Source: Minisyncoccota bacterium
Lineage (GTDB): Bacteria; Patescibacteriota; Minisyncoccia; Phycocordibacterales; UBA9973
DNA: 64,000 nt
Assembly (NCBI GenBank): GCA_041660345.1
Contig: JBAZWP010000001.1
Coordinates: 1-64,000, forward strand
Direction: 5' to 3'
Both the position numbers and the translations under genes were made by a program. The notes under the pieces were generated by a model, which did no database searches, was not told the origin of the DNA, and was given only the letters and a program-made list of their open reading frames with translations. Shown one piece after another: positions 2,717 through 57,332 of this stretch. Each line of letters starts with the position of its first letter. Position 1 is the first letter of the stretch.

Positions 2717-2792
2717 TACAAATAGTAATTTAGGTAGGGCTGATAAAAAAGAAGTTAAACAAAATATAGATATAAAGAAGAAGGAAAAAATT

Positions 2793-8140: not shown

Positions 8141-8147
8141 TTTCTAG

Positions 8148-8170
8148 ACATACCTATTATGTAGGTATGT
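8148..8170 (+). promoter_or_regulatory. 9-bp stem-loop overlapping the start codon of the 8167 gene
   Basis: acataccta-ttatg-taggtatgt; the ATG at 8167 lies in the 3' arm. Confidence 0.35.
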
Positions 8171-9270
8171 ATAATCATTTAAACAATGTAATTAGACAAA
8201 AGTTAATTATTTATTTAAAAGAGGCAATCCAAGAACATCCCCTTTTAAATACTACAGTTGTTTCCAATGTATTTCAACCTCAAGGACGCCCACCAACTCA
8301 GATTATTGTAACAGCATCGTCAGGTTCTGATTTCCGAGTATCTTTAGATGATTATCTTGGTAAATACAATGCTTTTTCAATAGTGGCTAAATGTGCTGGG
8401 TTCCCATCATCATCAATTGAATGGGTTGTTGACTTACCTTTATATACTGGTACTCGAGCTAATAGAGGTATATATTACTGTAGAGTAAACGAAACAGCAA
8501 CTGCATTTACACTTGATCCATTATATGAATTAGATGAATTAGTAGACGTACAATTTGACGGCACTAATTACTATGCTGATTTATCATCAACACCATATCA
8601 AGAAAAGGTATATGTTAGAAGTGATTATGGTAGTTTTACAAAAGATGTTGATTATACATTAAGTGGTCAAAGGATTGTTTTCGATCAATATGTTGAAGAT
8701 GAACAAATAAGGGTATTTTATAGATTCCCCGGTACTTTATTTGGTCCTTTTAATTTAGATAAAAATTATGCGTGTCGAGACGCATTACCTGGATTTGCTA
8801 TCGCATTTGGAGAACGACTTGTTCCTAATGATATGCAGGGTATTTTAATATCAGATATAAAGGAAGAAGTTGGTGAAATATTTGGTGGTAGGTATAATTT
8901 AGGTCTTAGTATATCTTTATACGCATTAGATGAAAAATTATTAGAGAAATTAGAAGATTTTGTTTCATCATGGTTATGGGAGAATCGAAGAAAACTTGAA
9001 GATGATAATATTATAATATCTAAACAGTCAAATAGTGACCAATCTAATGAAAAAGAAATTGAAATAGCTAATATACCGACATTTAAAGGTGGTTATAGCC
9101 TTGATATTATAACCGAATGGAAGTTTTTCTCACCTTATATATTTAGAGTACTCGATATTGAATCAGTATTCTATCCAACTGTTGATTTAGATAGACCAAC
9201 AGATTCATATAGTTATTCACCTTATGAAGATAGACCTTTAGTTGATTTAAGTGAATTTGAATCGAGCTAA
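8167..9270 (+). CDS. hypothetical protein, possibly virion-associated
   Basis: 367-aa ORF immediately upstream of the large structural-type protein; start codon lies in the stem of a hairpin. Confidence 0.4.
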   Translation: MYNHLNNVIRQKLIIYLKEAIQEHPLLNTTVVSNVFQPQGRPPTQIIVTASSGSDFRVSLDDYLGKYNAFSIVAKCAGFPSSSIEWVVDLPLYTGTRANRGIYYCRVNETATAFTLDPLYELDELVDVQFDGTNYYADLSSTPYQEKVYVRSDYGSFTKDVDYTLSGQRIVFDQYVEDEQIRVFYRFPGTLFGPFNLDKNYACRDALPGFAIAFGERLVPNDMQGILISDIKEEVGEIFGGRYNLGLSISLYALDEKLLEKLEDFVSSWLWENRRKLEDDNIIISKQSNSDQSNEKEIEIANIPTFKGGYSLDIITEWKFFSPYIFRVLDIESVFYPTVDLDRPTDSYSYSPYEDRPLVDLSEFESS

Positions 9271-17412: not shown

Positions 17413-17727
17413 ATGAAATATCTAGAATTAAAAGAGACTCATTTATACGCGGGTCATTATAAGCTTGATTTAATGCTAACTAAAGAGGGTTACGAACTTC
17501 TATTAGTTTTAGCAGAAGATGATAAATATAATGATGAAGCTATATTTTATGTATTATTTAAACCAAATCGTGAAGAAGAAGGTTGGAAAATAATTAATAA
17601 ACGAAACGATAGTAAATTAATTAGCATAATGCCACCAAGTAGGGATAAATCGTATACTCAAGATTTAAACCAATCAATAATTGATGAATTAATTGACCAA
17701 GGTTTTTCAAATCTATATACTATTTAA
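17413..17727 (+). CDS. hypothetical protein
   Basis: Last plus-strand ORF before the strand switch. Confidence 0.3.
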   Translation: MKYLELKETHLYAGHYKLDLMLTKEGYELLLVLAEDDKYNDEAIFYVLFKPNREEEGWKIINKRNDSKLISIMPPSRDKSYTQDLNQSIIDELIDQGFSNLYTI

Positions 17728-17895
17728 AGTCATCACATACATTAAGCTTAGGCACTATTATAATATATTTTAGTAAGTCACAGTAGCAATAATTTTCATC
17801 GTATTCTTTATGCTTTTGTGAATGCTTACAAGATTTACAGTTATCTGAACATTCAGATATTCTAAAATTCTTTAATTGATGTGATATTGATTCCA

Positions 17896-18357
17896 TTAAA
17901 ATATATCCACCTTAAAATTAGCGTTCATTGCCCAGCATAAACTTGATAACATTTTAATTGTTATGGGTTTTTTACCAAATATTATATCATCAATAAATTT
18001 AGGATCCTTTTTAAGCTTATTTGCAAGATACTCTTTGGTTATATTTCGTTGAACCATTAAGTTTATAATTTTAGACTGCAGCTCCATTTCAATTTTTTCT
18101 TCATATTGCTTTTGGGTTGGCAACATTTTTTTAATATAATTATCAATAACTGATGGTAATGTTCCAATTCGTTTTGCAATATCTTCTTTTGATACACCAT
18201 TGAGAATCATATCTTTTATTTTCTGTTCATATACACCACATTCAATAAGTGCATTAATAACTGCAGTTTCAGTCATCTTTGTTTTTTTAGATATTTCTTC
18301 AATTTGTAATCGAATGTTTTTAATACTTGGGTTGAACATTTTCATTATATCATTCAT
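17896..18357 (-). CDS. putative DNA-binding / regulatory protein
   Basis: 153-aa helical ORF; first gene of the minus-strand block at the convergence point; HTH-like segment; weak call. Confidence 0.3.
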   Translation of the reverse strand: MNDIMKMFNPSIKNIRLQIEEISKKTKMTETAVINALIECGVYEQKIKDMILNGVSKEDIAKRIGTLPSVIDNYIKKMLPTQKQYEEKIEMELQSKIINLMVQRNITKEYLANKLKKDPKFIDDIIFGKKPITIKMLSSLCWAMNANFKVDIF

Positions 18358-20853: not shown

Positions 20854-21506
20854 GTATGAATGTCCACCACAATAATTCCATGATTGTCTGGGTTAGCCTT
20901 TTCATCACAAAGTCGCATAGTTCTAACTTCATCATCTGGTGTATGCATATAATTTGTAAAAGGAGGCACCACTAAATCTTTTGAGTATGCTTCATAAAAT
21001 TTAATTATACAACTAGAGTTATACAACATTTGACCGGTATAATCTTCTTTTTCTAATCCTTTTACAACATTAGCTGTTTTTTCAAAAACTTCAGCAAACT
21101 TTGTAGTTAACTCCCTTTGGAATTGTTTTATATCATATGGTAATATTAGTCTATTTTTGATAGCTTCTAAATTATCATTACCATAATGACTAAGTTCATA
21201 TATAATAATACTCCATGCTAAATCCAGTACATGTTCGTATCTATTATCCAATTTCATTATCTCGGTATAATATTCATCTCGACCTCGCCAATCATTTTCT
21301 TTTACAAGCTGTAACACTTCATTCTTTTTATTTACAATGATTGCGGGTTGATACCAATTATTTTCATCACAAAAGTCAATTGCATATGCTTCTTGAAAAT
21401 AATTGTTAACTGCTTCGCTAGTCCATTCAAAATCAGTTGTATTAACTAAAAAAAGATAATTTGCATGCATACTTTTACTCCAATTTATTAAATAGTAATA
21501 TATCAT
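20850..21506 (-). CDS. hypothetical protein, possible partner domain of the adjacent RNA ligase-like protein
   Basis: 218-aa ORF immediately downstream of the ligase-like ORF with overlapping ends. Confidence 0.3.
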   Translation of the reverse strand: MIYYYLINWSKSMHANYLFLVNTTDFEWTSEAVNNYFQEAYAIDFCDENNWYQPAIIVNKKNEVLQLVKENDWRGRDEYYTEIMKLDNRYEHVLDLAWSIIIYELSHYGNDNLEAIKNRLILPYDIKQFQRELTTKFAEVFEKTANVVKGLEKEDYTGQMLYNSSCIIKFYEAYSKDLVVPPFTNYMHTPDDEVRTMRLCDEKANPDNHGIIVVDIHT

Positions 21507-22080
21507 CCTTACAAAAATCTTTTAGTTTTTGTAACCAAATATTGCTCTTAATTTTAAACATTAAAGGTTGATTCTTCTTGGTTGATTTACATACAACACC
21601 TTCAAATGTCATATTTTGTAGTTTACTGTTTTTAACGCTATTGTAAAATTCATCTGTAATATTACCATGATATAACAATTTTGCTATATCAAAATCTTGA
21701 AACCATTCTATAAATTCCTTAGGTTGCATCATTCCTTTTTTATATAACGATACATCGAATAGGACTACATCAAAGTTATCATTTTCAACATGGTTTCCAG
21801 CAAATGATTTACTACCATAAAATTCAAAAAAACATACAGCTTCGGTTTGTCTTTTCTTTAAGAATAAAAGGTTTAAAAGTTCATACTTGGATTGTATAAT
21901 ATATACTGCTTTTCCTAAAATAGGTTCATTTTTATCAAGTAGTCGATGTCTTGTTCCAAATTTATAAAAGCCGTTTTTTCTACTCCATTCAGCTCTAATA
22001 TTAGAACCATCTATTTTATCAAAACAATAAAAAGGTTCACCCTTTACTATGTTTTTAGTTATTGAAGGATATTGTTTCAT
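21475..22080 (-). CDS. RNA ligase-like nucleotidyltransferase domain (Rnl2-like)
   Basis: N-terminal YPSITKN...CFDKIDGSNIR resembles the T4 Rnl2 YSSLEN...EKIHGTN motif I (KxDGxN lysine-adenylate site). Confidence 0.45.
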   Translation of the reverse strand: MKQYPSITKNIVKGEPFYCFDKIDGSNIRAEWSRKNGFYKFGTRHRLLDKNEPILGKAVYIIQSKYELLNLLFLKKRQTEAVCFFEFYGSKSFAGNHVENDNFDVVLFDVSLYKKGMMQPKEFIEWFQDFDIAKLLYHGNITDEFYNSVKNSKLQNMTFEGVVCKSTKKNQPLMFKIKSNIWLQKLKDFCKDDILLFNKLE

Positions 22081-24346: not shown

Positions 24347-25564
24347 TTATATTTTATTAAATAGGTCACCGATTATAGCTTCCCAGTACATATCCCATTG
24401 GGCGTTTGATACATTAAGTGCAGCTCTGACAGGTATATATAACCCATGATTCTTATCGAGCACCTTAATTGATTTAATCGCCCTTAGTATAGCGTTTTTA
24501 ATTTGATCGCTATACTCAATTATATTATCAACCTTTGGCTCAACTTTAATTGGTTCAACCACCTTAATTGGTTCAACCTTAATTGGCTCAACCTTAATTG
24601 GCTCAACCTTAATTGGCTCAACCTTAATTGACTTTGGCGCAAATCGTCTTTTAGGTATATAGTTTATATTGTACTTTCTTATATAATCGCCTATTGTTGA
24701 TTGAGTACAATGAAAGTGCCTAGCTATTTTTTCTTGGCTAAGACCCTGGTTAACTAATTCAATCAATTCACCCTTGTCTATATTTAATACACCTCTTTGA
24801 TTAGTGTATTTAATGTTATGTTCCTTGATAAAAGTGCCTACGGTTGTAGCTGAAACGCGAAAATCGTTTGCTATGTCAGTTAGGTTATTACCCATCTTAA
24901 TTAAAAGCTCTATACGAGGTATATCACGTTCTGTAATTTTAGTGTGCTTATAATTTATATTATTGTCACGAATATACTTACGTATAGTTGAACTACTAAC
25001 ATCGAAGTATTTAGCTATATCATCTACACTAAAACCTTCATTAATGAGCTTGATAAGCTCACCATTATTTAAGTTATATGATATATTCTTTATAGGTATA
25101 CCATAATATTCAAGTATACTTTTAACTGCGGCGTGGCCTATTTTTTCAATCTTATTACCATGCTTTTCATCTAGGTACTTAGCAATCTCACTACATGTTT
25201 TATTTTGATTTACATATAATTCAATTGCTTCATCTTTTGAAATATACTTAATGAATCTGGGTATACTCTTTTGTTCCTTCATTAGTATACTTGTAATAAC
25301 AGCTGTAGACATCGAGTACTTCGTTGATGCAGCGTTAGTTCCAATTTTATCAATATCATCTAGTAATTGGTTATAACCAATGCACTCACGGATATTTGAA
25401 ATTTTAGACGTGTGTGGGATTTTATTGCTATTTATAAGAATTTTCCTCACATCAAAGTATGTTCTACCAAGCTTTTTTGCTATTTCATTAATATCCTTTG
25501 TTTCAGTTTCAAAAATTTCTACGATAGTTGGTTTTTTAGATTCAAATTTTACAGTTCTTACCAT
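24347..25564 (-). CDS. multi-HTH repeat protein with (PIKVE)n linker and C-terminal ALNVS domain
   Basis: Four ~50-aa internal repeats each containing an HTH-like module (xxSxxEIAKYL / DIAKYFDVSSSTIRKYI / DIANDFRVSATTVGTFI / KIARHFHCTQSTIGDYI); six tandem PIKVE pentapeptides; C-terminus paralogous to 22442..22825. Confidence 0.5.
   Translation of the reverse strand: MVRTVKFESKKPTIVEIFETETKDINEIAKKLGRTYFDVRKILINSNKIPHTSKISNIRECIGYNQLLDDIDKIGTNAASTKYSMSTAVITSILMKEQKSIPRFIKYISKDEAIELYVNQNKTCSEIAKYLDEKHGNKIEKIGHAAVKSILEYYGIPIKNISYNLNNGELIKLINEGFSVDDIAKYFDVSSSTIRKYIRDNNINYKHTKITERDIPRIELLIKMGNNLTDIANDFRVSATTVGTFIKEHNIKYTNQRGVLNIDKGELIELVNQGLSQEKIARHFHCTQSTIGDYIRKYNINYIPKRRFAPKSIKVEPIKVEPIKVEPIKVEPIKVVEPIKVEPKVDNIIEYSDQIKNAILRAIKSIKVLDKNHGLYIPVRAALNVSNAQWDMYWEAIIGDLFNKI
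24536..24632. repeat. 15-bp in-frame tandem repeat (~6 copies, unit tcaaccttaattggc)
   Basis: Direct reading of 24536-24632; encodes the (PIKVE)n tract of the HTH-repeat protein. Confidence 0.8.
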
Positions 25565-43813: not shown

Positions 43814-44001
43814 AAATTCGCCCTCATTTTATTTTTTACATCTTCTATTATTAAATTACGTGCTTCATATAATGTTAATGTTATAGGATATACTATATCA
43901 AACGCACACCAATTAATGCAAAATGAATATGTAATACCATTAATATTATGGTAGCTTATACCACACCAGTCTAAATGGCATCCTATACATTTATCACTCA
44001 T
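43798..44001 (-). CDS. Cys/Trp-rich small protein
   Basis: 67-aa ORF. Confidence 0.25.
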   Translation of the reverse strand: MSDKCIGCHLDWCGISYHNINGITYSFCINWCAFDIVYPITLTLYEARNLIIEDVKNKMRANLWLIE

Positions 44002-44471
44002 CTCTTTTTCCTTTCCATCATTTTTACCACTTCATCAGGGACTATATCTTTAAGTGAACCACCGAAGTGAAATATTTCCTTAGCTGCAGTTGAACTAATA
44101 TAAGAGTATGCTGGATCTGTCATTATAAATATTGTTTCAATATCTTTATCTAGTTTTTTATTTATAAAAGACATGGTTGATTCAAATTCAAAATCAGCTA
44201 TAGAGCGCATGCCACGAATTAATATTGTAGCATTATGCTTTTTTGCAAGGTTAACTAAAAGCTCGTCTGATATTACAACTTCTATATAAGGCATACACCT
44301 TTTAATTATATCTACCCTTTCTTCAGGAGAGAAAAAGCATTTTTTACTAATGTTTTGAGCAACTGCTATAATAAGTTTATCGCATATTCTCAATCCACGT
44401 TTGATAATTTCAATATGACCATATGTTAATGGGTCAAATGAGCCAGCGTATATTGCTATTTTTTCAGACAT
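43998..44471 (-). CDS. coaD: phosphopantetheine adenylyltransferase
   Basis: IAIYAGSFDPLTYGHIEII matches the CoaD (H/T)xGH nucleotidyltransferase motif; ATILIRGMRSIADFEFE aligns with E. coli CoaD ATVLIRGLRAVADFEYE; ISSTAAKEI matches ISSSLVKEV. Confidence 0.85.
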   Translation of the reverse strand: MSEKIAIYAGSFDPLTYGHIEIIKRGLRICDKLIIAVAQNISKKCFFSPEERVDIIKRCMPYIEVVISDELLVNLAKKHNATILIRGMRSIADFEFESTMSFINKKLDKDIETIFIMTDPAYSYISSTAAKEIFHFGGSLKDIVPDEVVKMMERKKR

Positions 44472-44476
44472 TTATA

Positions 44477-44977
44477 TCACCTATATACTACTACAATTTT
44501 ATTTGATAAATGCTTATCTAAAATTTCTTTTACTTTAGCGGCATCTAAAAAACCATAACCAATACCCGGAAATGGTAATATTGCTGGGATATTTAATTCT
44601 TTTAGTTCAACACAACTCTGCTCGATTATATCAATATCAGCAATACATGCGAATCCAGGCACCCTATCACCAATTTTATATTTATGTCTTTGGTGTGGTA
44701 CGACTTCATCTAAACTAGATATTAACCTAAACCTAGGTTTAACAGGGAACATTATTAAGTCGCTATTGATTATATTAACATGTGGGTCACCTTCTTGCAT
44801 TAGTATTGAACCAACTTTAAAAGTGAGCCCTGGATACTTCTGGGATGCTTCATAAGCACATCCTCGACCCATAACAGCTTCACCATTCTTTTTAACAAAG
44901 CCATTAATGGTTATACAAGCATGTATCTTAAGCTTATCTTTTAAATCCCATAAGTCATGTTTTACGTATTGAGGCAC
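44477..44977 (-). CDS. macro-domain-like protein (putative ADP-ribose binding/processing)
   Basis: N-terminal ...ITINGFVKKNGEAVMGRGCA... glycine-rich motif typical of macro-like folds; assignment moderate. Confidence 0.4.
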   Translation of the reverse strand: MPQYVKHDLWDLKDKLKIHACITINGFVKKNGEAVMGRGCAYEASQKYPGLTFKVGSILMQEGDPHVNIINSDLIMFPVKPRFRLISSLDEVVPHQRHKYKIGDRVPGFACIADIDIIEQSCVELKELNIPAILPFPGIGYGFLDAAKVKEILDKHLSNKIVVVYR

Positions 44978-45711: not shown

Positions 45712-45914
45712 TTGTTTTCTTTAATACACTTTTTACATCTCTCTACTTGACCGTAATCCATATCACCTATAATTTCATGTGAAAAAGTCAAGTTTATTTT
45801 ATATAGCATACATAAAGGATTAACGTCTTTATAATCTAATTCAGGGCAGATATCCTTACAAAATCCTTTTAAATATTTTATCTTATGCGTCTTAGTGACA
45901 TTTTTAGTTGTCAT
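45708..45914 (-). CDS. Cys-containing small protein
   Basis: 68-aa ORF. Confidence 0.25.
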   Translation of the reverse strand: MTTKNVTKTHKIKYLKGFCKDICPELDYKDVNPLCMLYKINLTFSHEIIGDMDYGQVERCKKCIKENK

Positions 45915-47005
45915 TGTAATCCTTTCACTCCATCAATAATTTGTTTAATGCTTCTTAATGCACGAATAGACTCATCTTCTCGAATGATTTCTGCACTTGA
46001 TAATGAGCCATAGTGTTCTTCAAGACAGTTTAATAACAGTTCTTTAATTCTTTTTTCGTCAGGACCATATGGTAAACGCTTTGTTTCAATAGCGTTATGA
46101 TACATCCTTTCTAATTCAAGTTCTTTTTCTTTATACCAAATTTCAACATCTTCAATAGAGCGTTCGCCTCGACGAATTGTTTTAAGCTGTTCTCTATTTC
46201 GCTCAAGGTCAAGCGTTCCTTCGATAAGGATTTGTTCACATTCTAATGCAAGTCTTACAACATGATATAAAAACTTAACATCAAACCCTATTATCTTTAC
46301 TTGTTCAGCTCGTTTAGATCCTTCAACAGTTCTTTGATATAAATTTTTATACGCTTCTATATCAATATCATTAAGGTGGCTAAGTACTTGAATAGTACCA
46401 CGCTTTTCAAATTCAGATTGAACTTCACTTAATTGTAATGTATGTGGGATAAGCTTATCACCTTCAAATTCTATTAATTCGTTTAATCCTTCATGTTCTT
46501 TATCTTTAGCCTTATGAAGTTGGCTATGTGCATATCCTTTGAATTTTTGGAATGAACCAGCATGTAAGAAGATATGTCGATTTTCGCGTACCATTTCACC
46601 GACTCGTGTAATGTGAAGAATACAACGAGGTGGTACAAATAAAAGGTCAACCATGTTGGGGTTATTTTCCATACAAAGTTGGAAGCATCTTACAATACCA
46701 TACATTGTGAAGTCGTATTTTCTTTTTTCGTCCTTATTGACAACATGATGCTGTTGCCATGGATCTTTTTTATGTTCTTCTTCCTCTTTTTTCTTTGACC
46801 CAAATCCATTAATAACTCCAGCAGTATGCGGGAAAACAATGTATTTAGGTGGAATATAAAACCCATTAACATCCATATCGGACGTATCATCACTTACACC
46901 GTAGCTAACTGAACCTACAATAGCTTCGTAGGCGATGCTACCAGGAATATATGATGGTGGGTTAATTAACCCAAGCTTCTGAATTCGTTGTACTGTCGAT
47001 GGCAT
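45911..47005 (-). CDS. Pol-beta superfamily nucleotidyltransferase
   Basis: GSVSYGVSDDTSDMDV matches the GS-x(9-13)-DxD minimal nucleotidyltransferase motif; 364 aa. Confidence 0.5.
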   Translation of the reverse strand: MPSTVQRIQKLGLINPPSYIPGSIAYEAIVGSVSYGVSDDTSDMDVNGFYIPPKYIVFPHTAGVINGFGSKKKEEEEHKKDPWQQHHVVNKDEKRKYDFTMYGIVRCFQLCMENNPNMVDLLFVPPRCILHITRVGEMVRENRHIFLHAGSFQKFKGYAHSQLHKAKDKEHEGLNELIEFEGDKLIPHTLQLSEVQSEFEKRGTIQVLSHLNDIDIEAYKNLYQRTVEGSKRAEQVKIIGFDVKFLYHVVRLALECEQILIEGTLDLERNREQLKTIRRGERSIEDVEIWYKEKELELERMYHNAIETKRLPYGPDEKRIKELLLNCLEEHYGSLSSAEIIREDESIRALRSIKQIIDGVKGLQ

Positions 47006-47668: not shown

Positions 47669-47956
47669 CTAACTTTCGCGTATTATATTACATAATTCAT
47701 TATTATTATGTTTAGTATAATATTTCTCTACTGGTGAGAGCATTTCTTCAAAGATACTACTAGCAATAACTGCAAGTTCATCTTCAGTTGTATAATTATA
47801 ATTATCCCTAGCTTGTTTTATAGCTTCTTTTCCTTTTAATATAATGCTATCCTTAATATCTATTTTAGTTTTAGGTTTAGGTTTAGCTATAGTTTTAGGT
47901 TTAGCTTTAGTTTTAACAGCTTTAGTCTTAGTTGTAGTAGTCTTAGTTTTATTCAT
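47669..47956 (-). CDS. Lys/Thr-rich histone-H1-like small protein
   Basis: N-terminal TTTTKTKAVKTKAKPKTIAKPKPKTK tract encoded by ggtttag-type DNA repeats. Confidence 0.35.
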   Translation of the reverse strand: MNKTKTTTTKTKAVKTKAKPKTIAKPKPKTKIDIKDSIILKGKEAIKQARDNYNYTTEDELAVIASSIFEEMLSPVEKYYTKHNNNELCNIIRES

Positions 47957-47968
47957 TTTATACCTTTC

Positions 47969-49219
47969 TTATGTTCCATGTTCCCAATTATTTAAATAAT
48001 GCTCTTGCTCTTCAGTTAACTCGTCTATATCAATTTCCATAGCATCTAATTTAAGTTTAGCTATTTCTTTATCTAATTCAATAGGCATGCGATAAACCTT
48101 TTTCATTAGTGTGTGGTGATTATTAACTAAATAGATAGCTGCCATTACTTGATTTGCAAACGACATATCCATAACCGCAGATGGATGACCCTCAGCAGAT
48201 GCTAAATTAATAAGTCGACCCTCTCCTAATATATTAATTTTAATACCTGTTTTTAAAGTATATTCAACATTATTATCACGAATTACTCTTTTAAATTTAG
48301 TCATCTTTTCAAGAGCTTCAAGATTTAACTCAACATTAAAGTGACCACTATTTGCTACCATAGCACCATTTTTCATATTAGAAAACTCACCCATATCTAT
48401 TACATTAATATTGCCGGTAACTGTGCAGAAGAAGTCGCCAATTCTAGAAGCTTCTCTTATTGTCATTACTTCAAACCCATCCATAACAGCTTCTAATGCC
48501 TTAATAGGATCAATTTCAGTAATAATAACACGAGCACCTAAACCTTTAGCTCTCATAGCGATACCTTTACCGCACCAACCATAACCACAAACAACAAATA
48601 TGGAACCAGCTAATAATCTGTTAGTTGCTCTTATAATACCGTCGATTGTACTTTGACCTGTGCCGTATCGATTATCAAAAAGATGTTTAGTATCTGCGTC
48701 ATTAACCGCTATTACTGGATATTTTAACGCATCTTCTTCTTCCATTGCACGTAATCTAATAACCCCAGTAGTTGTTTCTTCAGTACCACCTAGAACTTTA
48801 CTTAAATCAAAATCCTTATGTAATGTTGTTAATAAGTCAGCGCCATCATCCATAGTAATATGTGGTTCACTTTCTAATGCATCAAATATATGTCTATAAT
48901 AGATATCTGAATTTTCACCTCTTATAGCATAAACGGGTATTTCCATATCTCGAACAATGGAAGCTGCAACATCGTCCTGAGTTGATAATGGATTAGATGC
49001 ACATAATACTACATTAGCACCAGCGATCTTTAGTGTTTCAACAAGATTAGCAGTTTCAGTTGTAACATGCATGCAAGCTGCAATATTAATATCCTTAAGT
49101 GGTTTATAAGCACCATATCTTCCTTTAAGCAGATTTAATACCGGCATATCTTGTGCTGCCCATTGAATTCTTAGTCTACCTTTATCTGCGATATGAATAT
49201 CTTTTATATCACATTTCAT
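47969..49219 (-). CDS. ahcY: S-adenosyl-L-homocysteine hydrolase
   Basis: 416 aa; [12 protein letters not shown]...MPVL N-terminus and NAD-binding [10 protein letters not shown] Rossmann motif typical of AdoHcyase; 4-nt overlap with metK. Confidence 0.85.
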
Positions 49220-50385
49220 AATCCAGCTTCCCTTCTTATTAATTGTACTTTATCATCCTTTTCCCATGTAAATTCTAATTCAGTTCGTCCAAAATGACCA
49301 TAATTACTTGTAAGACTATAAATAGGTCTTAGTAAATCTAATGTCTGAATAATACCAGCTGGTTTTAAGTTAAATAAACCTTTTATAATAGCTATTATTC
49401 TACTTTCTTCAATTTTACTTGTACCAAATGTATTAACATTAACTGAAATAGGTTCTGGGTATCCTATAGCGTATGATAGTTGTACTTCACATTCACTTGC
49501 TAATTTTGCCATTACAATATTCTTAGCAATATAACGAGCCATGTAGCTTGCAGACCTATCTACCTTTGATGGATCTTTACCACTAAATGCACCTCCACCA
49601 TGTCTACCGCTTCCACCATAAGTATCAACAATGATTTTTCGACCTGTTAAACCAGTATCACCATGAGGACCACCTATTTCAAATTTACCTGTCGGGTTAA
49701 TAAAGTACTTAGTATTTTCTAATAGCTTACTTGGTATTACTTTTTTAATTACATGTTCTATAACGCCTTCTTTTAATGTTTCATACTTAACATCTGGTGT
49801 ATGCTGCGTACTTAAAACTATTGTATCGATATATACAGGTTTACTATTAATATATTTGAATGTTACTTGTGATTTACCGTCTGGTCTAATGAAGTATAAG
49901 TCTTTATTTTTTCTAATTTTTGTAAGTTGTTTGGTTAAAAGGTGTGCATAATAAATCGGTGCAGGCATATATACATCTGTCTCATTACAGGCGTAACCAA
50001 ACATCATGCCTTGATCACCAGCACCCTGTTCTTTATATAAACCATCTCCTTCTGTTACACCCTGACTAATATCATCGGATTGTTTGTCTAAAGTAACTAT
50101 AACTCCGCATGATTTATAATCAAACCCTGTATCAGGATCGTCATAACCAATATCTTTAATTGTATCTCTAACTATTTTTTGAATATCTAATTGTGCTCTT
50201 GAAGTTATTTCACCTGCTACTACAACTAATCCTGTTGTTACAAGTGTTTCACATCCAACACGCGATTTAATATCTACCTTTAAACATTCATCTAAAATAG
50301 TGTCAGATATTTTATCGCAAATCTTATCTGGGTGTCCTTCGGTAACGGACTCACTAGTAAATAAAAAATCTTTACCTTTTTTCAT
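49216..50385 (-). CDS. metK: S-adenosylmethionine synthetase
   Basis: [20 protein letters not shown] signature, [16 protein letters not shown] and DTYGG motifs. Confidence 0.9.
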
Positions 50386-50392
50386 ATTCTCC

Positions 50393-50674
50393 TTACCATT
50401 TAAAGGGTACTTTTCTAGACTTAATTGTTTGAGTTTTATCTTCTTTAATATTATTTTCTTTTCTTAATCGTTCAATTTCTTTGTACATTTTACCCATTAT
50501 TTCATTATAGCACTTATGACAAACTTGAACGCTTTCTTCCCTACCTGATACTTTGTTACCACTTTCATCAATATAACCACTAATATTATCATTATCAGCT
50601 ATATGACACAAATAGTTTATTGTATTAAAACTATTTATTTCTTTTTCACAGGTATCACAAAAATATTTAATCAT
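50393..50674 (-). CDS. zinc-ribbon small protein
   Basis: CDTCEK...CHKCYN. Confidence 0.3.
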
Positions 50675-50913
50675 ATTTGGTTTTCATCTCTTTTAATTAC
50701 GTTTAAGAAATCAACTTTTTTAGGTTTAGATACATCTGATTTTCTTAATAACAATTCTTCTCTAACCAATCTTTTTATTGTTTCTATTTCAGATGACGCT
50801 TTTTTTTCAAAAGCACTTTTTCTTAAATCAATACCTTTAAAATATAAATTTTCTCTATTCATTTTTATTCCGATTAATAACTGAATTAATTGACATATCT
50901 CTTTCTTTACCAA
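50671..50913 (-). CDS. hypothetical small protein
   Basis: 80-aa ORF. Confidence 0.25.
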   Translation of the reverse strand: MVKKEICQLIQLLIGIKMNRENLYFKGIDLRKSAFEKKASSEIETIKRLVREELLLRKSDVSKPKKVDFLNVIKRDENQI

Positions 50914-51895
50914 TTGCTTTAGTTGGTTTTGGTTTAGACTTCGGTCTCTTCTTCTGTTTTCTGCCCCTAGTATTAAAGTTTTCAGTTACATACATCTCTG
51001 AATCACTCACTACACCCTTGAAAAATTCACCAATTGGGTCTTCACCACCACGCTCAACTATTCTCGGGTCTAATTTATGGTATGTTCTTACTTTCTTATA
51101 TTTATTTTGATGCTTAGGTTGTACTGTATGGTTTCTAACAGGGTATGGGTTACCCTTCATATCAAATAGTGTCCAACCACCTCTTGTATTTTCGTTATTA
51201 GTTTGTGATTCAGGTTCTTCTTCTATATTTTTATACTTATCAATAAGGTCAATACACTTATCGCCCCAATTATCAGGTGGTTCATCTAAAACTAATTTTT
51301 TACGCTGAATTCTTTTTAAGGTCTTAATGTAATTTCGATTACCATATTTATCTAATAACCATGTCTTCCAAAATGCGTACCATACTTTAAATTCATTTAG
51401 GTAATCATCTTTTGAAATTATTCGCATATCACCACGAAGACTTCTTTCAAAATTTACCTTATAGTTAGCTGTTAAATGAATTAGTTGCATTAATTTATCT
51501 TCGCGTTCTCTTATATCTTTTAAAACACTATCAGGAACAGCACTACAATGCTTTTCTAAATAATTTATATTATAATTAGCTATCTCTATAGCTATAAATA
51601 TATCTATTTCAGACATATCTGTAGGGTCTACATCATCTAAGTATGAATGTTTAAGTTTGTAGCGCTCCATAGCATTATCATCAATATATAATACGACAGA
51701 TTTAGCTACATTATTTGCATATTGTTTGGCGTATTCTTTTAAACCATTTTTAAATTTACGAGTATCTTCTTTAGAAAGACCACCTGACTTTTTAATTGCA
51801 TCTAATGGTGTTAAAATTTCCCCGTTACTTTTTGTACTACACGCAATTTTAGTACATAATTCTGCATCTAATTTTTTAAAACTTTTATAGCTCAT
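50855..51895 (-). CDS. hypothetical protein with basic C-terminal tail
   Basis: 346-aa ORF ending in RGRKQKKRPKSKPKPTK. Confidence 0.35.
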   Translation of the reverse strand: MSYKSFKKLDAELCTKIACSTKSNGEILTPLDAIKKSGGLSKEDTRKFKNGLKEYAKQYANNVAKSVVLYIDDNAMERYKLKHSYLDDVDPTDMSEIDIFIAIEIANYNINYLEKHCSAVPDSVLKDIREREDKLMQLIHLTANYKVNFERSLRGDMRIISKDDYLNEFKVWYAFWKTWLLDKYGNRNYIKTLKRIQRKKLVLDEPPDNWGDKCIDLIDKYKNIEEEPESQTNNENTRGGWTLFDMKGNPYPVRNHTVQPKHQNKYKKVRTYHKLDPRIVERGGEDPIGEFFKGVVSDSEMYVTENFNTRGRKQKKRPKSKPKPTKAIGKERDMSINSVINRNKNE

Positions 51896-53055
51896 ATTTC
51901 TTGATATACAAAATTTTTATTTTGAAAGTTAGTCATTTCTACTTTATTATTTGAATAATTAAAGAAATCTGGATTAATTGGTATTTTACCACCACCGCCA
52001 GGCGCATCTATAACAAATGATGGTATAGCATAACCACTTGTATGACCACGTAAACCTTTTATAATATCGATACCATCCTGAACTTTAGTCCTAAAGTGTG
52101 CCGATCCCGTAATGGGATCACATTGATAGATGTAATAAGGTCTTACGCGTCTTATTAAAAGCTTATGCATTAATGATTTCATTGTTTCTATATCGTTATT
52201 TATACCTTTTAATAGTACAGTTTGGCTACCCAATACTATCCCAGCATTAGCTAGCATATCACAAGCATTCTTATTCTCAATTGTGCATTCATCTGGGTGT
52301 GTAAAATGAACCGACATATAAACAGGATGATACTTTGAAATCATTTTAACAAGTGTTGGCGTGATTCTTTGAGGTAAAACAACAGGTATCTTAGTTCCTA
52401 TGCGAATTATCTCAATATGTGGTATATTTCTTAAACTTTTTAACAGATACTCCAAATGTTCATTGGAAAGTGTTAATGGATCACCACCTGAAAGTATCAC
52501 ATCTCGAATCTGGGGCGTTTTCCTTATGTAGTTGATAGATTCGTCCCAATTCGCTATATTAATCGTCTGGTGGTTACCTACAGCTCGACTGCGTGTACAA
52601 AAACGACAATATGATGAGCATATACCAGTCGTTAAGAATAACGCACGGTCTGGATACCTATGTACAATTCCTTCACAAGGTGAAGTTAAATCCTCTGATA
52701 ATGGGTCGTCTGACTCATTATTTCCTTGTATGAACTCATTACAAGTGGGTATCATCGTAGACCTTAGTTTATTATCATATATCAGTGACATATAATAAGG
52801 CGTTACAGCAAAAGGTAGGATATATTTACTATTTAAAAAGGCGGATTCTTCGTTATGTGATAGTCTTGTAATCCTTTTTAACTTTTCAAGTGTGGTAATT
52901 CTATTTTTAAATTGCCACTTCCAGTCGTTCCATTCTCTAAGTGATATATCTGAGTAAAATTGTTTTTTAAAATTGTAAGTTTTGGTATTTATACTTGGAG
53001 GTTTCTCATCAACCTCACCTTTAATAAGTGATTCAGCACATTCAGCAACTTCCAT
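51892..53055 (-). CDS. lysine 2,3-aminomutase-like radical SAM enzyme
   Basis: CSSYCRFCTRS (CxxxCxxC) radical-SAM cluster motif plus ILSGGDPL motif typical of the KamA/EpmB family. Confidence 0.8.
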   Translation of the reverse strand: MEVAECAESLIKGEVDEKPPSINTKTYNFKKQFYSDISLREWNDWKWQFKNRITTLEKLKRITRLSHNEESAFLNSKYILPFAVTPYYMSLIYDNKLRSTMIPTCNEFIQGNNESDDPLSEDLTSPCEGIVHRYPDRALFLTTGICSSYCRFCTRSRAVGNHQTINIANWDESINYIRKTPQIRDVILSGGDPLTLSNEHLEYLLKSLRNIPHIEIIRIGTKIPVVLPQRITPTLVKMISKYHPVYMSVHFTHPDECTIENKNACDMLANAGIVLGSQTVLLKGINNDIETMKSLMHKLLIRRVRPYYIYQCDPITGSAHFRTKVQDGIDIIKGLRGHTSGYAIPSFVIDAPGGGGKIPINPDFFNYSNNKVEMTNFQNKNFVYQEI

Positions 53056-53100
53056 TTTATTCCTTTCATGAATAGATGTTATTAAAGTTCGATTAAGAAA

Positions 53101-53493
53101 TTATATATTAGAAAGCGATTGCATTATAGCGCTAGCTTGGGCTTTATCTGTACACATGAATTTAGCATTAACATCAACCGTGAAATATTTATTAAACTCA
53201 TCTCCAGTAACGGTTATACTTGTAATATTTTCTTTTGCTAATACAGGCTTATATCTTTCTTTAAAAACATAGTCACTAAGCACTTGTGTAGTGCTATCTG
53301 TAAGCACTATCCAATCATTTAAATCAACAAGTAAATTTGAATGACTTAATTCAAATGACTTATCACTAACCGGTGTAATATACATTGCACGTTCGCTTAG
53401 AAATTTGAATAATTTCTCAAAGTCACCAGTCCACTGAAAAGCGTCAAATTCTTTTTTAGATATATATTTCATTTTAATCCTCTCATATACCAT
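53101..53493 (-). CDS. hypothetical protein
   Basis: 130-aa ORF. Confidence 0.3.
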   Translation of the reverse strand: MVYERIKMKYISKKEFDAFQWTGDFEKLFKFLSERAMYITPVSDKSFELSHSNLLVDLNDWIVLTDSTTQVLSDYVFKERYKPVLAKENITSITVTGDEFNKYFTVDVNAKFMCTDKAQASAIMQSLSNI

Positions 53494-54440
53494 TCAACTG
53501 TTTGTTTAATTCCATCCTTAAACTCTGTTCGAGGAGCCCATTTAAGCGCACCTTTTAATTTATCACAATTAATTGCGTATCTAAAATCGTGCCCTTTTCT
53601 ATCTTCAACAAAAGTAATCAACGACTTATACTTATTAGGTGATTCATTGCGACATATAGCAACTTCTGCACATAGTGTATTTACAATTTCTAAATTATTC
53701 TTTTCACAGTTGCCACCAATATTATATGTTTCACCTAATTTACCTTCAGTTAATATCTTCCATATAGCGCTGCAATGGTCTTCAACATATAACCAATCTC
53801 TTACGTTATCGCCTTTACCATATACTGGTATTGGTTTATTATTTAAAATGCGATTTATAGTTAATGGTATAAGCTTCTCTCGATGCTGATAAGGTCCATA
53901 ATTATTTGAACAATTACTAATAGTATATTTGATTCCATATGTATGTCCATATGCTCTAACTAAATGGTCACTAGACGCTTTGCTTGCACTATAGGGTGAT
54001 TTAGGATCATAAGGTGTTTTTTCATAAAAATAACCTTTCTTACCTAAACTACCATATACTTCATCTGTTGAAACATGATGTAATCTTAATTTATAATCTT
54101 TTACTTCTTCTAGTACTCTAAAAGTTCCTTTTATATTTGTTTCTATAAAATGGTCAGGGTGAGCTATTGAATTATCAACATGAGATTCTGCAGCAAAATG
54201 AACTACAGTATCAATTTTAAGATCACGAATTACTTTTTTTAATTCAGGATATTTACAAATATCTCCAAAACAAAAATCAAAATTATCCTTTTTTAGGAGT
54301 GGTTCAAGATATTCTTTATTACCTGCATATGTTAGCTTATCAAAAATAACATAATAATCATCTGTTCTATTTAAACTATCTAGGTAATAACAAAAATTTG
54401 TACCTATAAAACCAGCACCACCAGTTATTAATATATTCAT
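53469..54440 (-). CDS. rfbB: dTDP-glucose 4,6-dehydratase
   Basis: MNILITGGAGFIGTNF NAD-binding motif and YSASK (YxxxK) catalytic motif of short-chain dehydratases. Confidence 0.85.
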   Translation of the reverse strand: MNILITGGAGFIGTNFCYYLDSLNRTDDYYVIFDKLTYAGNKEYLEPLLKKDNFDFCFGDICKYPELKKVIRDLKIDTVVHFAAESHVDNSIAHPDHFIETNIKGTFRVLEEVKDYKLRLHHVSTDEVYGSLGKKGYFYEKTPYDPKSPYSASKASSDHLVRAYGHTYGIKYTISNCSNNYGPYQHREKLIPLTINRILNNKPIPVYGKGDNVRDWLYVEDHCSAIWKILTEGKLGETYNIGGNCEKNNLEIVNTLCAEVAICRNESPNKYKSLITFVEDRKGHDFRYAINCDKLKGALKWAPRTEFKDGIKQTVEWYMRGLK

Positions 54441-54443
54441 ATT

Positions 54444-54707
54444 TTACTCCATCTTAGGTAGTATATAATACCATAAGTTTGATTGATGTAAATCGTGGCC
54501 AGGTTGTTCTATATAACTCATTTCACCCATTAAATTAACTATGTAACCTTTAGCAATATGCCATCGTTTATCAGCAGTGAATCTACCATTATACACATCT
54601 TGATAATTTATAAAAGTACTTGTAACGTCTTTTATTTCAAAAAACCATACTGCACAGTCATCATCGCCATTTGGTTTTATAATTGCAAGATTTAATAATT
54701 CAACCAT
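54444..54707 (-). CDS. hypothetical protein (paralog of 57090..57332)
   Basis: LLNLxxxKPNxDDxCAVWF...TADKRW shared motif. Confidence 0.35.
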   Translation of the reverse strand: MVELLNLAIIKPNGDDDCAVWFFEIKDVTSTFINYQDVYNGRFTADKRWHIAKGYIVNLMGEMSYIEQPGHDLHQSNLWYYILPKME

Positions 54708-55620
54708 CGTGTACCATTTTAAAATAAGATGTTAAGTCTATATCACGTACAGCTATATCATTAACAACTGCTTCTGAACATTTTGCTACAGAAATACCTT
54801 CTTTATCTCTTATTTCTTTTACAAGTTCTATATGAATATTAATAAAATCGTCCTTATTTTTCTCTAAATTTATAAATAATATTTTATCCTTATAATCTAT
54901 TTCAATATCAACACGCCCATCACTACCAGGACCCGGTGTTAATTCAACTGAAGTATCACCATAAAAAGCTTCAGCTCTAACTACTACTTCTTTAGCTGAC
55001 TGGATTAGATAAGGTGAAAACTCTTTTCCTCGATACCCATCCCAACCTTCTTTAAATTGTAAATAAGAATCAAGCTCTCTTATAGCCTTACCATAAGTGT
55101 TTTTATCAAAATATTCTATAAGTTTATTAAAAAACTCATCGTTACAATTTTCTAAGTTGCTAGGTATAAGATCGCTTAAGCTAACTTTAGCAGGTTTTTT
55201 ATCAGGATACTTTTCTAAATATATCTTAAAAGCTTTTTTAGCTATTTCTTTTGCTTCTTCAAAACTACAATTTTTTGCTCTTAAAACAAGTGTTATTCCA
55301 TAATAACCATCTTCATCTTCACCAAATTGAATCACATTTTCATTAAAGATAACACCATCACGTTCTCTTTCTTTTAATGGGTGAAGTTCGCCTTTATCTA
55401 TATTATTTTCTAATTTTTCAATTTCATCTTTAAATATGGCTATCTCCCAATACTCTTTTACTAGCTCAGGTACTTTTTCTAAAAAGAGTTGCTCTATACC
55501 TAGTGTAGACGGGTCGTCACTATCTGCGATTATTTTTTCAGCTTTATCTTTATCTGCGGTACATCCAATAAGTTCCCAACTATCATATCTATTGTAATAA
55601 ATTATATAAATAGGCAACAT
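54700..55620 (-). CDS. hypothetical protein
   Basis: 306-aa ORF. Confidence 0.35.
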   Translation of the reverse strand: MLPIYIIYYNRYDSWELIGCTADKDKAEKIIADSDDPSTLGIEQLFLEKVPELVKEYWEIAIFKDEIEKLENNIDKGELHPLKERERDGVIFNENVIQFGEDEDGYYGITLVLRAKNCSFEEAKEIAKKAFKIYLEKYPDKKPAKVSLSDLIPSNLENCNDEFFNKLIEYFDKNTYGKAIRELDSYLQFKEGWDGYRGKEFSPYLIQSAKEVVVRAEAFYGDTSVELTPGPGSDGRVDIEIDYKDKILFINLEKNKDDFINIHIELVKEIRDKEGISVAKCSEAVVNDIAVRDIDLTSYFKMVHDG

Positions 55621-55622
55621 TA

Positions 55623-55826
55623 TTATCTACTTTCCTTTCTATATCGAAAACCATTACCTGTATCGCAACTTAATTCTTTTGTACATCCCCAGTATATTTG
55701 TGGATGCTCCCAATCTTCTTGTTCTTCATAACCAAATTCACAAAAATCACATTTACCTTGATAAGTTCCATCCTTAGATTTATATATACATGTATTTAAA
55801 TTATGCGCTGCCATTAAAAGCTCCAC
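55623..55826 (-). CDS. Cys-rich small protein
   Basis: 67-aa ORF. Confidence 0.25.
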   Translation of the reverse strand: MELLMAAHNLNTCIYKSKDGTYQGKCDFCEFGYEEQEDWEHPQIYWGCTKELSCDTGNGFRYRKESR

Positions 55827-56614
55827 ACACCCTTTAAGAATTTATAAAACTTGTAAGGTTCTATACAACTAAGTCCAGCCATTTGTCCATCATTTAATTC
55901 AATTACAATCCATTTTTTATCTTGTGTAAATGCAATATCAACCACCCAAAAGTTAATATTAGGTGAAACTATTTCTTTAACCTTAGCTAGTAAATCCATA
56001 GCCTCAGTTGGTAAGTCGTTATATTCAGGTCTCTTATCACTAAATGACCAATAGAAACCATATTGAATTAATATATCCTTGTAAAAGAAACATCTCCACT
56101 CATTTGAAATAGGTAATCCATTGTATATTGAATCTTCTAATTTAACAAGTGGTACATATTCTCTTACAGCAATACCTTGTTGACTTATTAATGAATCATC
56201 TAAAAGTCTACCTGCTATATCTCGAACATCATCCTTAGTAGGCGCAAACATCATGCGATTCCATTGGTGTTTACGTGAATTAGTAAGACCTTTAAGAACG
56301 TATGACTTGTCATCAGGTATTTTATTCCATCCTTCAAACCATGTTTTAGGTGTGAACTCAACTAAATCTGGATACCAGTTTCGCATATCAGCTACATATA
56401 AGTGTTGTTCATGCGAATTAATAAGTCGTGAACCTTTAGTAGCTAAATCTTTTTCCAATTCATGATAAAAAGGAAGTACCGAATATCTACCCCAAACAAT
56501 AGAATCTTCTGGGATTTCAGATCGATTAGTTTTCCAGTCAATACACATATCTTTGAGTACATTGTACTCATCCTCTTGATCTCTTGAATATCTAAAAAGT
56601 ATTGTGTTATTCAT
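55814..56614 (-). CDS. ATP-grasp-like enzyme
   Basis: C-terminal WVVDIAFTQDKKWIVIELNDGQMAGL resembles the ATP-grasp ExN Mg-binding strand; a central K-rich segment may be the ATP loop; moderate confidence. Confidence 0.4.
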   Translation of the reverse strand: MNNTILFRYSRDQEDEYNVLKDMCIDWKTNRSEIPEDSIVWGRYSVLPFYHELEKDLATKGSRLINSHEQHLYVADMRNWYPDLVEFTPKTWFEGWNKIPDDKSYVLKGLTNSRKHQWNRMMFAPTKDDVRDIAGRLLDDSLISQQGIAVREYVPLVKLEDSIYNGLPISNEWRCFFYKDILIQYGFYWSFSDKRPEYNDLPTEAMDLLAKVKEIVSPNINFWVVDIAFTQDKKWIVIELNDGQMAGLSCIEPYKFYKFLKGVWSF

Positions 56615-56822
56615 ATTTAAAAGACTTTATAATTCTTTCACATTCTGGTGTTGACTTATGAATACAGTCTATACATATAGGTTTTGAAAGAGGTGATGGT
56701 ATTATTGAGCCATCTTCTGATTCATAATTACCACACTCTTCACCTGTCCATTGTATAAATAATTTATTAAATGTGCAGCCAGCTGGTGGTTTAAAAATTT
56801 CTAAAATTTCAGATTCTCTCAT
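56607..56822 (-). CDS. Cys-containing small protein
   Basis: 71-aa ORF. Confidence 0.25.
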   Translation of the reverse strand: MRESEILEIFKPPAGCTFNKLFIQWTGEECGNYESEDGSIIPSPLSKPICIDCIHKSTPECERIIKSFKYE

Positions 56823-57103
56823 ATAACTCCTAAAACTTTTTGTATTTCTTTTAACTTATCTCTTTGACCATTTGCATATGCTGTTACTGCTATTAGTTCT
56901 AAAGATCTTAAAAATTCTTGCTCTACAAGTGGGCTATTAAATAAATCAGCACTTAATAAATTAAGCTTTGTATTATCTTCTAAATTAACTGTTATATGAA
57001 ATTCATTACCAGCATGTGACGCACTAGGTCTATAACCTACATCACATCTACATATGCTCTTAATTGTATTGTAAAATTCTATAATATCGCTATCTCTTAT
57101 CAT
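56819..57103 (-). CDS. hypothetical protein
   Basis: 94-aa ORF. Confidence 0.3.
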   Translation of the reverse strand: MIRDSDIIEFYNTIKSICRCDVGYRPSASHAGNEFHITVNLEDNTKLNLLSADLFNSPLVEQEFLRSLELIAVTAYANGQRDKLKEIQKVLGVI

Positions 57104-57332
57104 TTGTTACTCCTATATTAGGTAATATTACATAAAACAAATATGGTTCATTATTAACATATCTACCTATTTGAATTAATTCAAAACCCATCATAATAAT
57201 CCATCTTTTATCAGCAGTAACATCCCATTTTGTTAATCCCTCTAAAACAGTATTATCACTATAAGGAGGATAAAACCAAACAGCACATATGTCTTCATTA
57301 TTTGGTTTTGTATTTGATAAATTTAAAAGCAT
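57090..57332 (-). CDS. hypothetical protein (paralog of 54444..54707)
   Basis: MLLNLSNTKPNNEDICAVWF...TADKRW. Confidence 0.35.
   Translation of the reverse strand: MLLNLSNTKPNNEDICAVWFYPPYSDNTVLEGLTKWDVTADKRWIIMMGFELIQIGRYVNNEPYLFYVILPNIGVTNDKR

Follow-up and report, generated by a model that had tools for sequence, protein, structure and literature searches.

The 64,000-nt stretch of DNA analyzed here (contig JBAZWP010000001.1, positions 1 to 64,000; hereafter the window) carries two adjacent genes predicted to make S-adenosylmethionine (SAM) and to dispose of S-adenosylhomocysteine (SAH): metK, encoding a methionine adenosyltransferase, and ahcY, encoding a short-type S-adenosyl-L-homocysteine hydrolase (Table 1). 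An earlier note on this DNA had described them as a complete methyl-cycle pair carried by a phage, and open reading frame (ORF) reading, Pfam and NCBIfam agree with it on the identity, coordinates, adjacency and 4-nt overlap of the two genes. Pfam recovered all three MetK domains in the metK product (PF00438, PF02772 and PF02773; E 1e-44 to 1e-66) and both AdoHcyase domains in the ahcY product (PF05221 and PF00670; E 1e-63 and 9e-50). Against the NCBIfam equivalog TIGR01034 the MetK sequence scored 580 bits (cutoff 309.4) over model positions 1-375 of 377, and AhcY reached 602.5 bits against TIGR00936 (cutoff 497.6; model positions 2-416 of 416) and 592 bits against a second equivalog, NF004005 (cutoff 275). 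With E-values of ~1e-175 to 1e-181, both family matches lie far above chance.

Neither gene contains an internal stop. Window MetK aligns end to end with the Escherichia coli MetK structures 7low/1fug (504 bits), and mapping through a phmmer alignment revealed conservation of all 14 E. coli active-site residues checked (His14, Asp16, Glu42, Glu55, Gln98, Asp118, Lys165, Phe230, Asp238, Arg244, Lys245, Lys265, Lys269 and Asp271), whose roles are established background, in part after Komoto 2004 as reported in a citing paper. AhcY likewise aligns end to end with the solved SAH hydrolase 7o5l (518 bits), in which alignment the catalytic His/Asp/Glu/Lys/Asp/His/His set and the glycine loop binding nicotinamide adenine dinucleotide (NAD) are all present; the retained motifs include HVTTET, DDGxD, EETTTG and GHPSAVMD, as well as a DTKHLFDN motif that we take to correspond to human Lys186/Asp190. 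The protein scores 518-503 bits against bona fide SAH hydrolases, versus 440 bits against the archaeal S-inosyl-homocysteine hydrolase 7r3a. The GHPDK signature of MetK and the NAD Rossmann motif and 416-aa length of AhcY are as the earlier note had them, and the check that it proposed for frameshifts and active-site losses found neither. Uninterrupted ORFs and intact catalytic residues rule out a pseudogene reading, and we regard the identity and intactness of metK and ahcY, as judged from their sequences, as close to certain.

The ATGA stop/start overlap between the two genes suggests that translation of ahcY may be coupled to that of metK, and the ahcY ATG is preceded, at a distance of 8 nt, by a purine-rich AAGGGAAG stretch. 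At the other end of the pair, the TAA stop (50393-50395) of a 93-aa zinc-ribbon-like ORF directly precedes the GGAGA Shine-Dalgarno sequence of metK. A leader is excluded because there is no intergenic space upstream of either gene. No SAM or SAH riboswitch was detected at the Rfam gathering threshold in the whole window, or at E<=1 over 47-53.5 kb, and the cellular metK-ahcY operons examined likewise have none. Both genes are embedded in a long co-directional array on the minus strand. Transcription units could not be defined within it, because the counts of promoter-like and terminator-like matches were not above those of shuffled sequence; of the three terminator-like matches in 43.5-57 kb, none is on the minus strand.

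Proteins identical to both products are on deposit as MFA5999440.1 and MFA5999441.1 under the name 'MAG: Candidatus Paceibacterota bacterium' (locus-tag prefix WC783), and the corresponding 64,167-bp contig of that metagenome-assembled genome (MAG) is essentially the window. Its gene content is phage-like. The window holds 128 genes in 64 kb, with 96% coding density and a mean product length of ~160 aa; no tRNA, rRNA or other Rfam family was found in it, and Pfam searches of its ORFs returned no ribosomal-protein gene. Its tail sheath protein has its best full-length relative in the sheath of Tunturi_5, a Tunturiibacter phage of 309 kb (32% identity over 93% of the length), followed by matches in a 485-kb uncultured phage and then in the 498-kb Bacillus phage G. 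Genes g16, g17 and g19 are collinear with those for the tail terminator, sheath and virion structural protein of Tunturi_5, the last of which (gp329) shares 35% identity with g19 (E 3e-38). A primase and a nucleotidyltransferase of phage type match PHROGs families, and many window genes are ORFans, among them a 346-aa neighbor of the pair that matches only itself among 5.8 billion proteins. These features indicate that the window is probably a fragment of a jumbo contractile-tailed phage (myovirus), mis-binned in a MAG of the candidate phyla radiation (CPR), with a full genome probably of at least 200 kb, and it is very probable that the metK-ahcY pair is carried by this phage.

Both proteins have their nearest homologues in cellular genomes, at only 63-69% identity: Thermodesulfovibrio, Thermodesulfobacteriota and Thermosulfuriphilus sequences for AhcY, and Desulfuromonadales and other 'Deltaproteobacteria' for MetK. 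Neighbor-joining trees grouped the window proteins with cellular sequences in 194 of 200 bootstrap replicates for AhcY and 175 of 200 for MetK, and placed the nearest viral copies from IMG/VR clearly farther away than the cellular ones. The metK-ahcY gene order was seen in every short-AhcY lineage examined, with a 7-nt overlap in Thermodesulfovibrio (Nitrospirota; CP001147) and gaps of 10 nt in a Thermodesulfobacteriota MAG, 23 nt in Thermosulfuriphilus and 81 nt in a 'Deltaproteobacteria' MAG. Single lineages resemble both window proteins alike (MetK/AhcY identities of 63/68% and 67/64%), and the Desulfuromonadales, with an AhcY of the long type, show just 38-40% AhcY identity to the window. 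The Thermodesulfovibrio and Thermodesulfobacteriota operons share with the window not only gene order but also a short AhcY (416-419 aa), a MetK of 386-389 aa and an overlap or short gap between the genes. They differ from it in context and composition: the window copy sits among ORFans in a phage gene array and uses AT-rich codons (GC content at third codon positions, GC3, of 0.15-0.18), and the neighbors of the cellular operon (phosphotransferase system genes, asd and recO) were not carried into the window. Since the same order is native to the donors and single lineages match both proteins, capture of the operon as a unit is favored, and the simplest reading of the pair is that an entire cellular operon was taken up in an event independent of the other viral copies.

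Codon usage places this putative capture far back in time. The relative synonymous codon usage of the two genes correlates with that of the rest of the window at 0.90 and 0.94, the top of the range among the window's long genes, and their GC3 values of 0.18 and 0.15 compare with a window mean of 0.21; donor-type genes and operons range from 37% to ~67% GC. All catalytic residues are retained despite more than 30% divergence. Full codon amelioration together with intact catalytic residues therefore points to long residence under purifying selection, and the capture appears to be old, with the genes apparently maintained since. An assembly chimera or a very recent transfer was considered and ruled out, since the pair resembles the remainder of the contig in both codon usage and GC3. 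Both attributes by which auxiliary metabolic genes (AMGs) are recognized were found here: a cellular origin with seemingly retained function (cellular homologues, bootstrap values and intact active sites), and, with the caveats given below, location on a viral genome rather than in cellular contamination (tail genes, gene architecture and codon match to the contig).

The pair had been called unusual for a phage, and database searches bear this out. A tblastn search identified AhcY in three of 50,697 deposited phage records, none of them credible. Two are contigs of 'Acinetobacter phage MD-2021a' (among them CAKLQF020000002.1) that consist of bacterial chromosome, with lipA, fadE, metF, rsmE and maeB as neighbors, and the third (MT836783) is an unverified 8.8-kb fecal fragment without metK. 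Several Salmonella whole-genome shotgun contigs are also held in the phage collection (INPHARED/GenBank); bacterial contigs of this kind therefore yield false 'phage' matches for housekeeping genes. PHROGs contains no AhcY family, its MetK family being phrog_1569, and MetK was found in 132 deposited phage records, 90 of which are Streptococcus prophages. Among the 2.9 million contigs of IMG/VR, a sensitive scan recovered 306 stretches that encode AhcY, many of them on 100-350-kb contigs, and a scan for close relatives alone recovered 471 MetK stretches. A metK gene lay within 10 kb of AhcY at 3 of 40 loci and within 6 kb at 3 of the 80 loci examined, and ahcY lay within 10 kb of MetK at 6 of 80; the two genes thus occur near each other on about nine distinct IMG/VR contigs, or ~4-8% of the AhcY or MetK loci checked. 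AhcY is essentially absent from cultured phages, and even viral metagenomes seldom contain the pair; the literature searched yielded no description of a phage metK-ahcY operon.

Taken singly, the two genes have viral precedents: metK, dcm and ahcY are recognized virus-encoded AMG families (10.1101/2021.01.05.425418; PMC12180181). Published viral AMGs of methionine and SAM metabolism (metK, dcm, ahcY, mtnN and luxS) are, like the window genes, cellular enzymes with conserved active sites on viral contigs, but AMG surveys handle genes one at a time, whereas the window holds both as one putative coupled unit on a jumbo-phage fragment. The prophage MetK proteins of PHROG 1569 (Streptococcus Javan and phi-Ssu, Helicobacter and Faecalibacterium phages) resemble the window protein in being full-length SAM synthetases; they differ in belonging to small temperate phages without ahcY and in sharing only 42-52% MetK identity. 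In Streptococcus suis phages metK is accompanied by a dcm DNA methyltransferase (10.1101/2021.01.05.425418), a partner for which no counterpart is detectable in the window. The best analogue is the 172-kb viral contig IMGVR_UViG_3300043446_003177 (loci L036 and L158), with adjacent metK and ahcY in that order, a short AhcY and tail-like genes. At 47% identity in MetK and 54% in AhcY, and with no other gene in common within 10 kb, locus L036 seems to represent the same operon acquired separately by another large phage; such a separate capture is suggested by the trees, in which the window genes group with cellular copies. A four-tRNA array (7888-8725) lies directly upstream of the L036 pair.

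Table 1. Coordinates of the metK-ahcY pair, its sequence motifs and other annotated features of the window (1-based positions).
Feature	Position	Strand	Remarks
metK, methionine adenosyltransferase (SAM synthetase)	49216-50385	minus	389 aa
ahcY, S-adenosyl-L-homocysteine hydrolase	47969-49219	minus	416 aa; short type without the ~40-aa insertion
ATGA stop/start overlap, metK/ahcY	49216-49219	minus	read from the sequence
GGAGA Shine-Dalgarno of metK	50388-50392	minus	2 nt before metK start
MetK GHPDK motif	50323-50337	minus	aa 17-21; His18/Asp20 = E. coli His14/Asp16
MetK GGGAFSGKD P-loop	49573-49599	minus	aa 263-271; Lys270 = E. coli Lys265
AhcY GYGWCGKG, NAD-binding Rossmann glycine loop	48563-48586	minus	aa 212-219
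AhcY DTKHLFDN, catalytic Lys/Asp motif	48671-48694	minus	same in 7o5l except L/F and F/Y substitutions
Tail sheath (g17)	9334-12057	plus	907 aa; phrog_2839, PF04984
RmlA-like nucleotidyltransferase	62256-62993	minus	
HisF/HisA-like protein	58544-59473	minus	
ATP-grasp R2K protein	55814-56614	minus	
g107, two-domain protein	54700-55620	minus	306 aa; C-terminal ~90-aa domain GWDGYxG…PGPxxDGSxDIE
RmlB-like dTDP-glucose 4,6-dehydratase	53469-54440	minus	
KamA-family radical SAM protein	51892-53055	minus	TIGR00238 subfamily cutoff passed
g102, ORFan	50855-51895	minus	346 aa; very basic C-terminal tail; 4-nt overlap with KamA-like stop
Lys/Thr/Pro-rich protein	47669-47956	minus	95 aa; just downstream of ahcY
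RlaP-type nucleotidyltransferase	45911-47005	minus	PF10127, phrog_388
Vault-like protein	29819-32233	minus	804 aa
SPFH/Band-7 protein	32297-33517	minus	406 aa; phrog_11908
Volactin-like protein	2700-3785	plus	361 aa; PF25216
Multiple helix-turn-helix protein	24347-25564	minus	405 aa

The minus-strand array containing the pair runs, from high to low coordinates, through genes for the RmlA-like, HisF-like and ATP-grasp R2K proteins, the 306-aa protein g107, the RmlB-like and KamA-family proteins, the 346-aa ORFan g102 and two small ORFs before reaching metK and ahcY; downstream of ahcY it continues with the 95-aa protein, the RlaP-type nucleotidyltransferase, a phrog_335 'phosphatase' and a cytidylyltransferase-like protein. 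The island upstream of metK (51892-63000), made up of sugar and amino-acid modification genes, could be a pathway for DNA or virion-glycan modification. Its KamA-family product does not reach the equivalog cutoff of any of the lysine, glutamate and arginine 2,3-aminomutases or that of EpmB, and its closest relatives, at 52-55% identity, are encoded by the uncultured huge phages LR756500 and LR756501 (462 kb and 735 kb); the gene is also found in ~200-kb jumbo phages, including those of Pseudomonas and Vibrio. A single-sequence AlphaFold2 (AF2) model of g102 was unusable, with a predicted local distance difference test (pLDDT) score of 37.5. For g107, an AF2 model based on a multiple sequence alignment reached an overall pLDDT of 67.5, with 85-97 in the C-terminal domain, which is predicted not to be Rossmann-like. 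This domain is common to ~140 small proteins of 120-200 aa (141 remote homologues) and had no match in Pfam, no sequence match in the PDB and no Foldseek match in the PDB at E<=0.001; it is an uncharacterized family.

Further features of the window were recorded alongside. The 95-aa protein just downstream of ahcY has a Lys/Thr/Pro-rich, histone-H1-like N-terminus (KTKTTTTKTKAVKTKAKPKTIAKPKPKTK) and may bind DNA. Candidates for RNA repair or nucleotide handling, comprising an RNA ligase (PF09414), a metallophosphoesterase, the cytidylyltransferase-like protein, the phrog_335 'phosphatase' and the RlaP-type protein, lie on the minus strand at 21475-22080, 36054-36791, 43998-44977 and 45911-47005. 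The 804-aa protein, odd for a phage, matches the Major Vault Protein shoulder (PF11978, 4e-30), a Vault_3 repeat and SPFH/Band-7, and adjoins the 406-aa SPFH/Band-7 protein; this region has a locally raised GC content of 0.395, against ~0.30, and its codon usage is less typical than that of any other part of the window (relative synonymous codon usage r 0.67). A strong full-length match to Volactin (2e-69), of the actin family, suggests that the 361-aa protein may be a phage cytoskeletal element, and several tandem helix-turn-helix modules, with dozens of matches to such Pfam and PHROGs families, make the 405-aa protein probably a DNA-binding regulator. Plus-strand genes occupy 1-17.7 kb and minus-strand genes 17.7-64 kb, with a convergent strand switch at ~17700-17900 and a peak of cumulative GC skew; the plus-strand block contains primase-like and clamp-loader-like genes together with those for the tail terminator, sheath and virion protein.

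In the account that we propose, a jumbo phage with a contractile tail acquired a copy of an entire metK-ahcY operon from a cellular donor with the gene arrangement of Thermodesulfovibrio and Thermodesulfobacteriota, and selection would have kept the pair in place. MetK would convert methionine and ATP to SAM. SAH, which every methyl transfer leaves behind as an inhibitor, would be hydrolyzed to adenosine and homocysteine by AhcY, probably co-translated via the ATGA overlap. Coupled translation would allow SAM to be made and SAH to be cleared in fixed proportion, free of host feedback control, so that in the infected cell the pair would raise the SAM/SAH ratio, or methylation potential, whatever the host's own regulation. 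The benefiting methyltransferases are presumed to lie outside the 64-kb fragment, elsewhere in the phage genome or in that of the host. Within this scheme we infer co-translation, expression during infection, the benefit to methylation and the identity of the consumer. On balance we favor the overall account of a domesticated cellular metK-ahcY operon that sustains the SAM/SAH ratio in a jumbo phage, with moderate confidence, and we hold support of methylation to be the likelier selected function of the pair, with confidence of the same order.

Several observations weigh against this proposal. The window lacks capsid, portal and terminase genes, and its hallmark virion genes are confined to one side, at 8-13 kb. 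The case for a phage is therefore built from the tail genes, the gene architecture and the affinities to jumbo phages, and without capsid, portal and terminase genes it is strong but not absolute; the earlier description of the genes as carried by the phage stands with that caveat and with the deposition of the contig as a CPR MAG. A sheath search of IMG/VR for sister phages gave no match, and no sister genomes were found. As regards the methyl cycle, Pfam, NCBIfam or PHROGs searches of ~60 of the largest window ORFs identified no SAH-producing methyltransferase, motif-I, DPPY and PCQ methyltransferase signatures were absent when all 128 proteins were scanned for them, and the structure models of g102 and g107 were uninformative on this point. 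The same ORF searches returned no MetH or MetE, nor was an enzyme that removes adenosine detected. The AhcY equilibrium requires removal of its products, and the enzyme matters only where SAH arises, that is, in methyl transfer. Of the four steps of an activated methyl cycle (MetK, a methyltransferase, AhcY or Pfs plus LuxS, and MetH/MetE), two (MetK and AhcY) are encoded in the window; the description as a complete methyl cycle goes too far, and the suggestion that methylation by the phage consumes the SAM finds no detectable methyltransferase in the 64 kb.

A genuine Candidatus Paceibacterota chromosome, with metK and ahcY as housekeeping genes possibly beside a prophage or contractile injection system, would agree with the label on the deposited proteins, and tail-sheath homologues do occur in bacterial contractile injection systems too. 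We nevertheless consider it extremely unlikely, and it is disfavored by the small, tightly packed genes and the missing tRNA, rRNA and ribosomal-protein genes, by a sheath closest to that of a jumbo phage with two more virion genes collinear with Tunturi_5, and by the huge-phage affinity of the KamA-like gene and the many ORFans; moreover, none of the source-named sequences among the top 120 homologues of either protein is from CPR. Accepting a phage, the SAM might instead serve non-methyl uses (radical-SAM chemistry, aminocarboxypropyl transfer or polyamines), with ahcY a mere passenger of the operon. The earlier note had pointed to the KamA-like enzyme as such a consumer: its gene, situated 1.5 kb upstream within the array, passes TIGR00238 and encodes the only CxxxCxxC radical-SAM motif in an enzyme-sized protein among the 128 scanned. 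MetK is also far commoner than AhcY in deposited phages (132 versus 3 records), and capture of a pre-formed operon makes hitch-hiking possible. Yet it is established biochemistry that 2,3-aminomutases of the lysine type use SAM as a cofactor regenerated at each turnover, adding little demand, and SAM-consuming radical-SAM cleavage yields 5'-deoxyadenosine and methionine rather than SAH; since radical-SAM chemistry makes no SAH, AhcY is irrelevant to the KamA-like enzyme. The huge phages with the best KamA matches have neither metK nor ahcY nearby, and a conserved KamA-metK-ahcY module in huge phages was ruled out when comparison with LR756500 over 20 kb on either side showed nothing in common beyond the KamA-like gene and a single small ORF. 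Retention in ahcY of every catalytic and NAD motif, of ameliorated codons and of a coupled start argues that ahcY was itself selected. We therefore judge this explanation unlikely.

Rather improbable, in our estimation, is a jumbo phage equipped with its own SAM-regeneration module, either for a reduced host without a methyl cycle, possibly of the Paceibacterota/CPR, or as fuel for a hitherto undescribed SAM-dependent pathway by which the surrounding island would modify phage DNA or virion glycans; in the latter variant, one ORFan of the RmlA/HisF/ATP-grasp/RmlB/KamA-like island would be a methyltransferase of unrecognized fold. In both variants the pair would constitute a self-sufficient metabolic cassette rather than a generic AMG. 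Redirection of sulfur-amino-acid and adenosine flux, with methionine converted via SAM and SAH into homocysteine and adenosine, would feed cysteine or sulfide formation and nucleotide salvage for a large genome, without methylation being the point. Kieft et al. do class metK, ahcY, dcm, mtnN and luxS as funneling organosulfur toward homocysteine and cysteine (10.1101/2021.01.05.425418), but a methyltransferase is still needed between SAM and SAH, each turn costs ATP, and the Pfam and NCBIfam searches of window ORFs found no cystathionine-pathway, adenosine kinase or deaminase gene, which leaves this scenario quite improbable. A counter-defense module, restoring SAM or removing SAH against host immunity that depletes or depends on these metabolites, seems very improbable. 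Phage pathways that rebuild defense-depleted metabolites are the only analogy for it, and we know of no SAM-depleting defense system. The array does hold other possible repair or counter-defense genes (the RlaP-type nucleotidyltransferase, the RNA ligase and the phrog_335 'phosphatase'), but the literature searched shows no link of phage metK or ahcY to anti-defense. The documented phage case, moreover, runs opposite to what the earlier note had proposed: the SAMase of phage T3 destroys SAM and inhibits host MetK, and so escapes Type I restriction-modification and bacteriophage exclusion (BREX) (10.1101/2023.02.27.530186). Both the T3 SAM lyase and the window pair act on the host SAM pool, in opposite directions and through unrelated proteins.

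Each of the two genes is already known as a viral AMG, and their arrangement is that of an ordinary cellular operon. What is noteworthy is the near-absence of AhcY from cultured phages, the rarity of the coupled pair in viral metagenomes and the mislabeling of the contig as a CPR bacterium. With what is probably a jumbo-phage fragment binned in a CPR MAG, metabolic reconstructions would wrongly credit the Paceibacterota bin with metK, ahcY, rmlA/B and a 2,3-aminomutase. The window locus and the ~300 AhcY loci of IMG/VR mark a candidate viral function, and any heavy methylation directed by the phage might be sought in the missing part of its genome. Should the pair be active, large phages would be able to import a pre-assembled regulatory and metabolic unit, combining synthesis of the methyl donor with removal of its by-product, beyond single AMGs, and would thereby gain control over the methylation potential of the infected cell.

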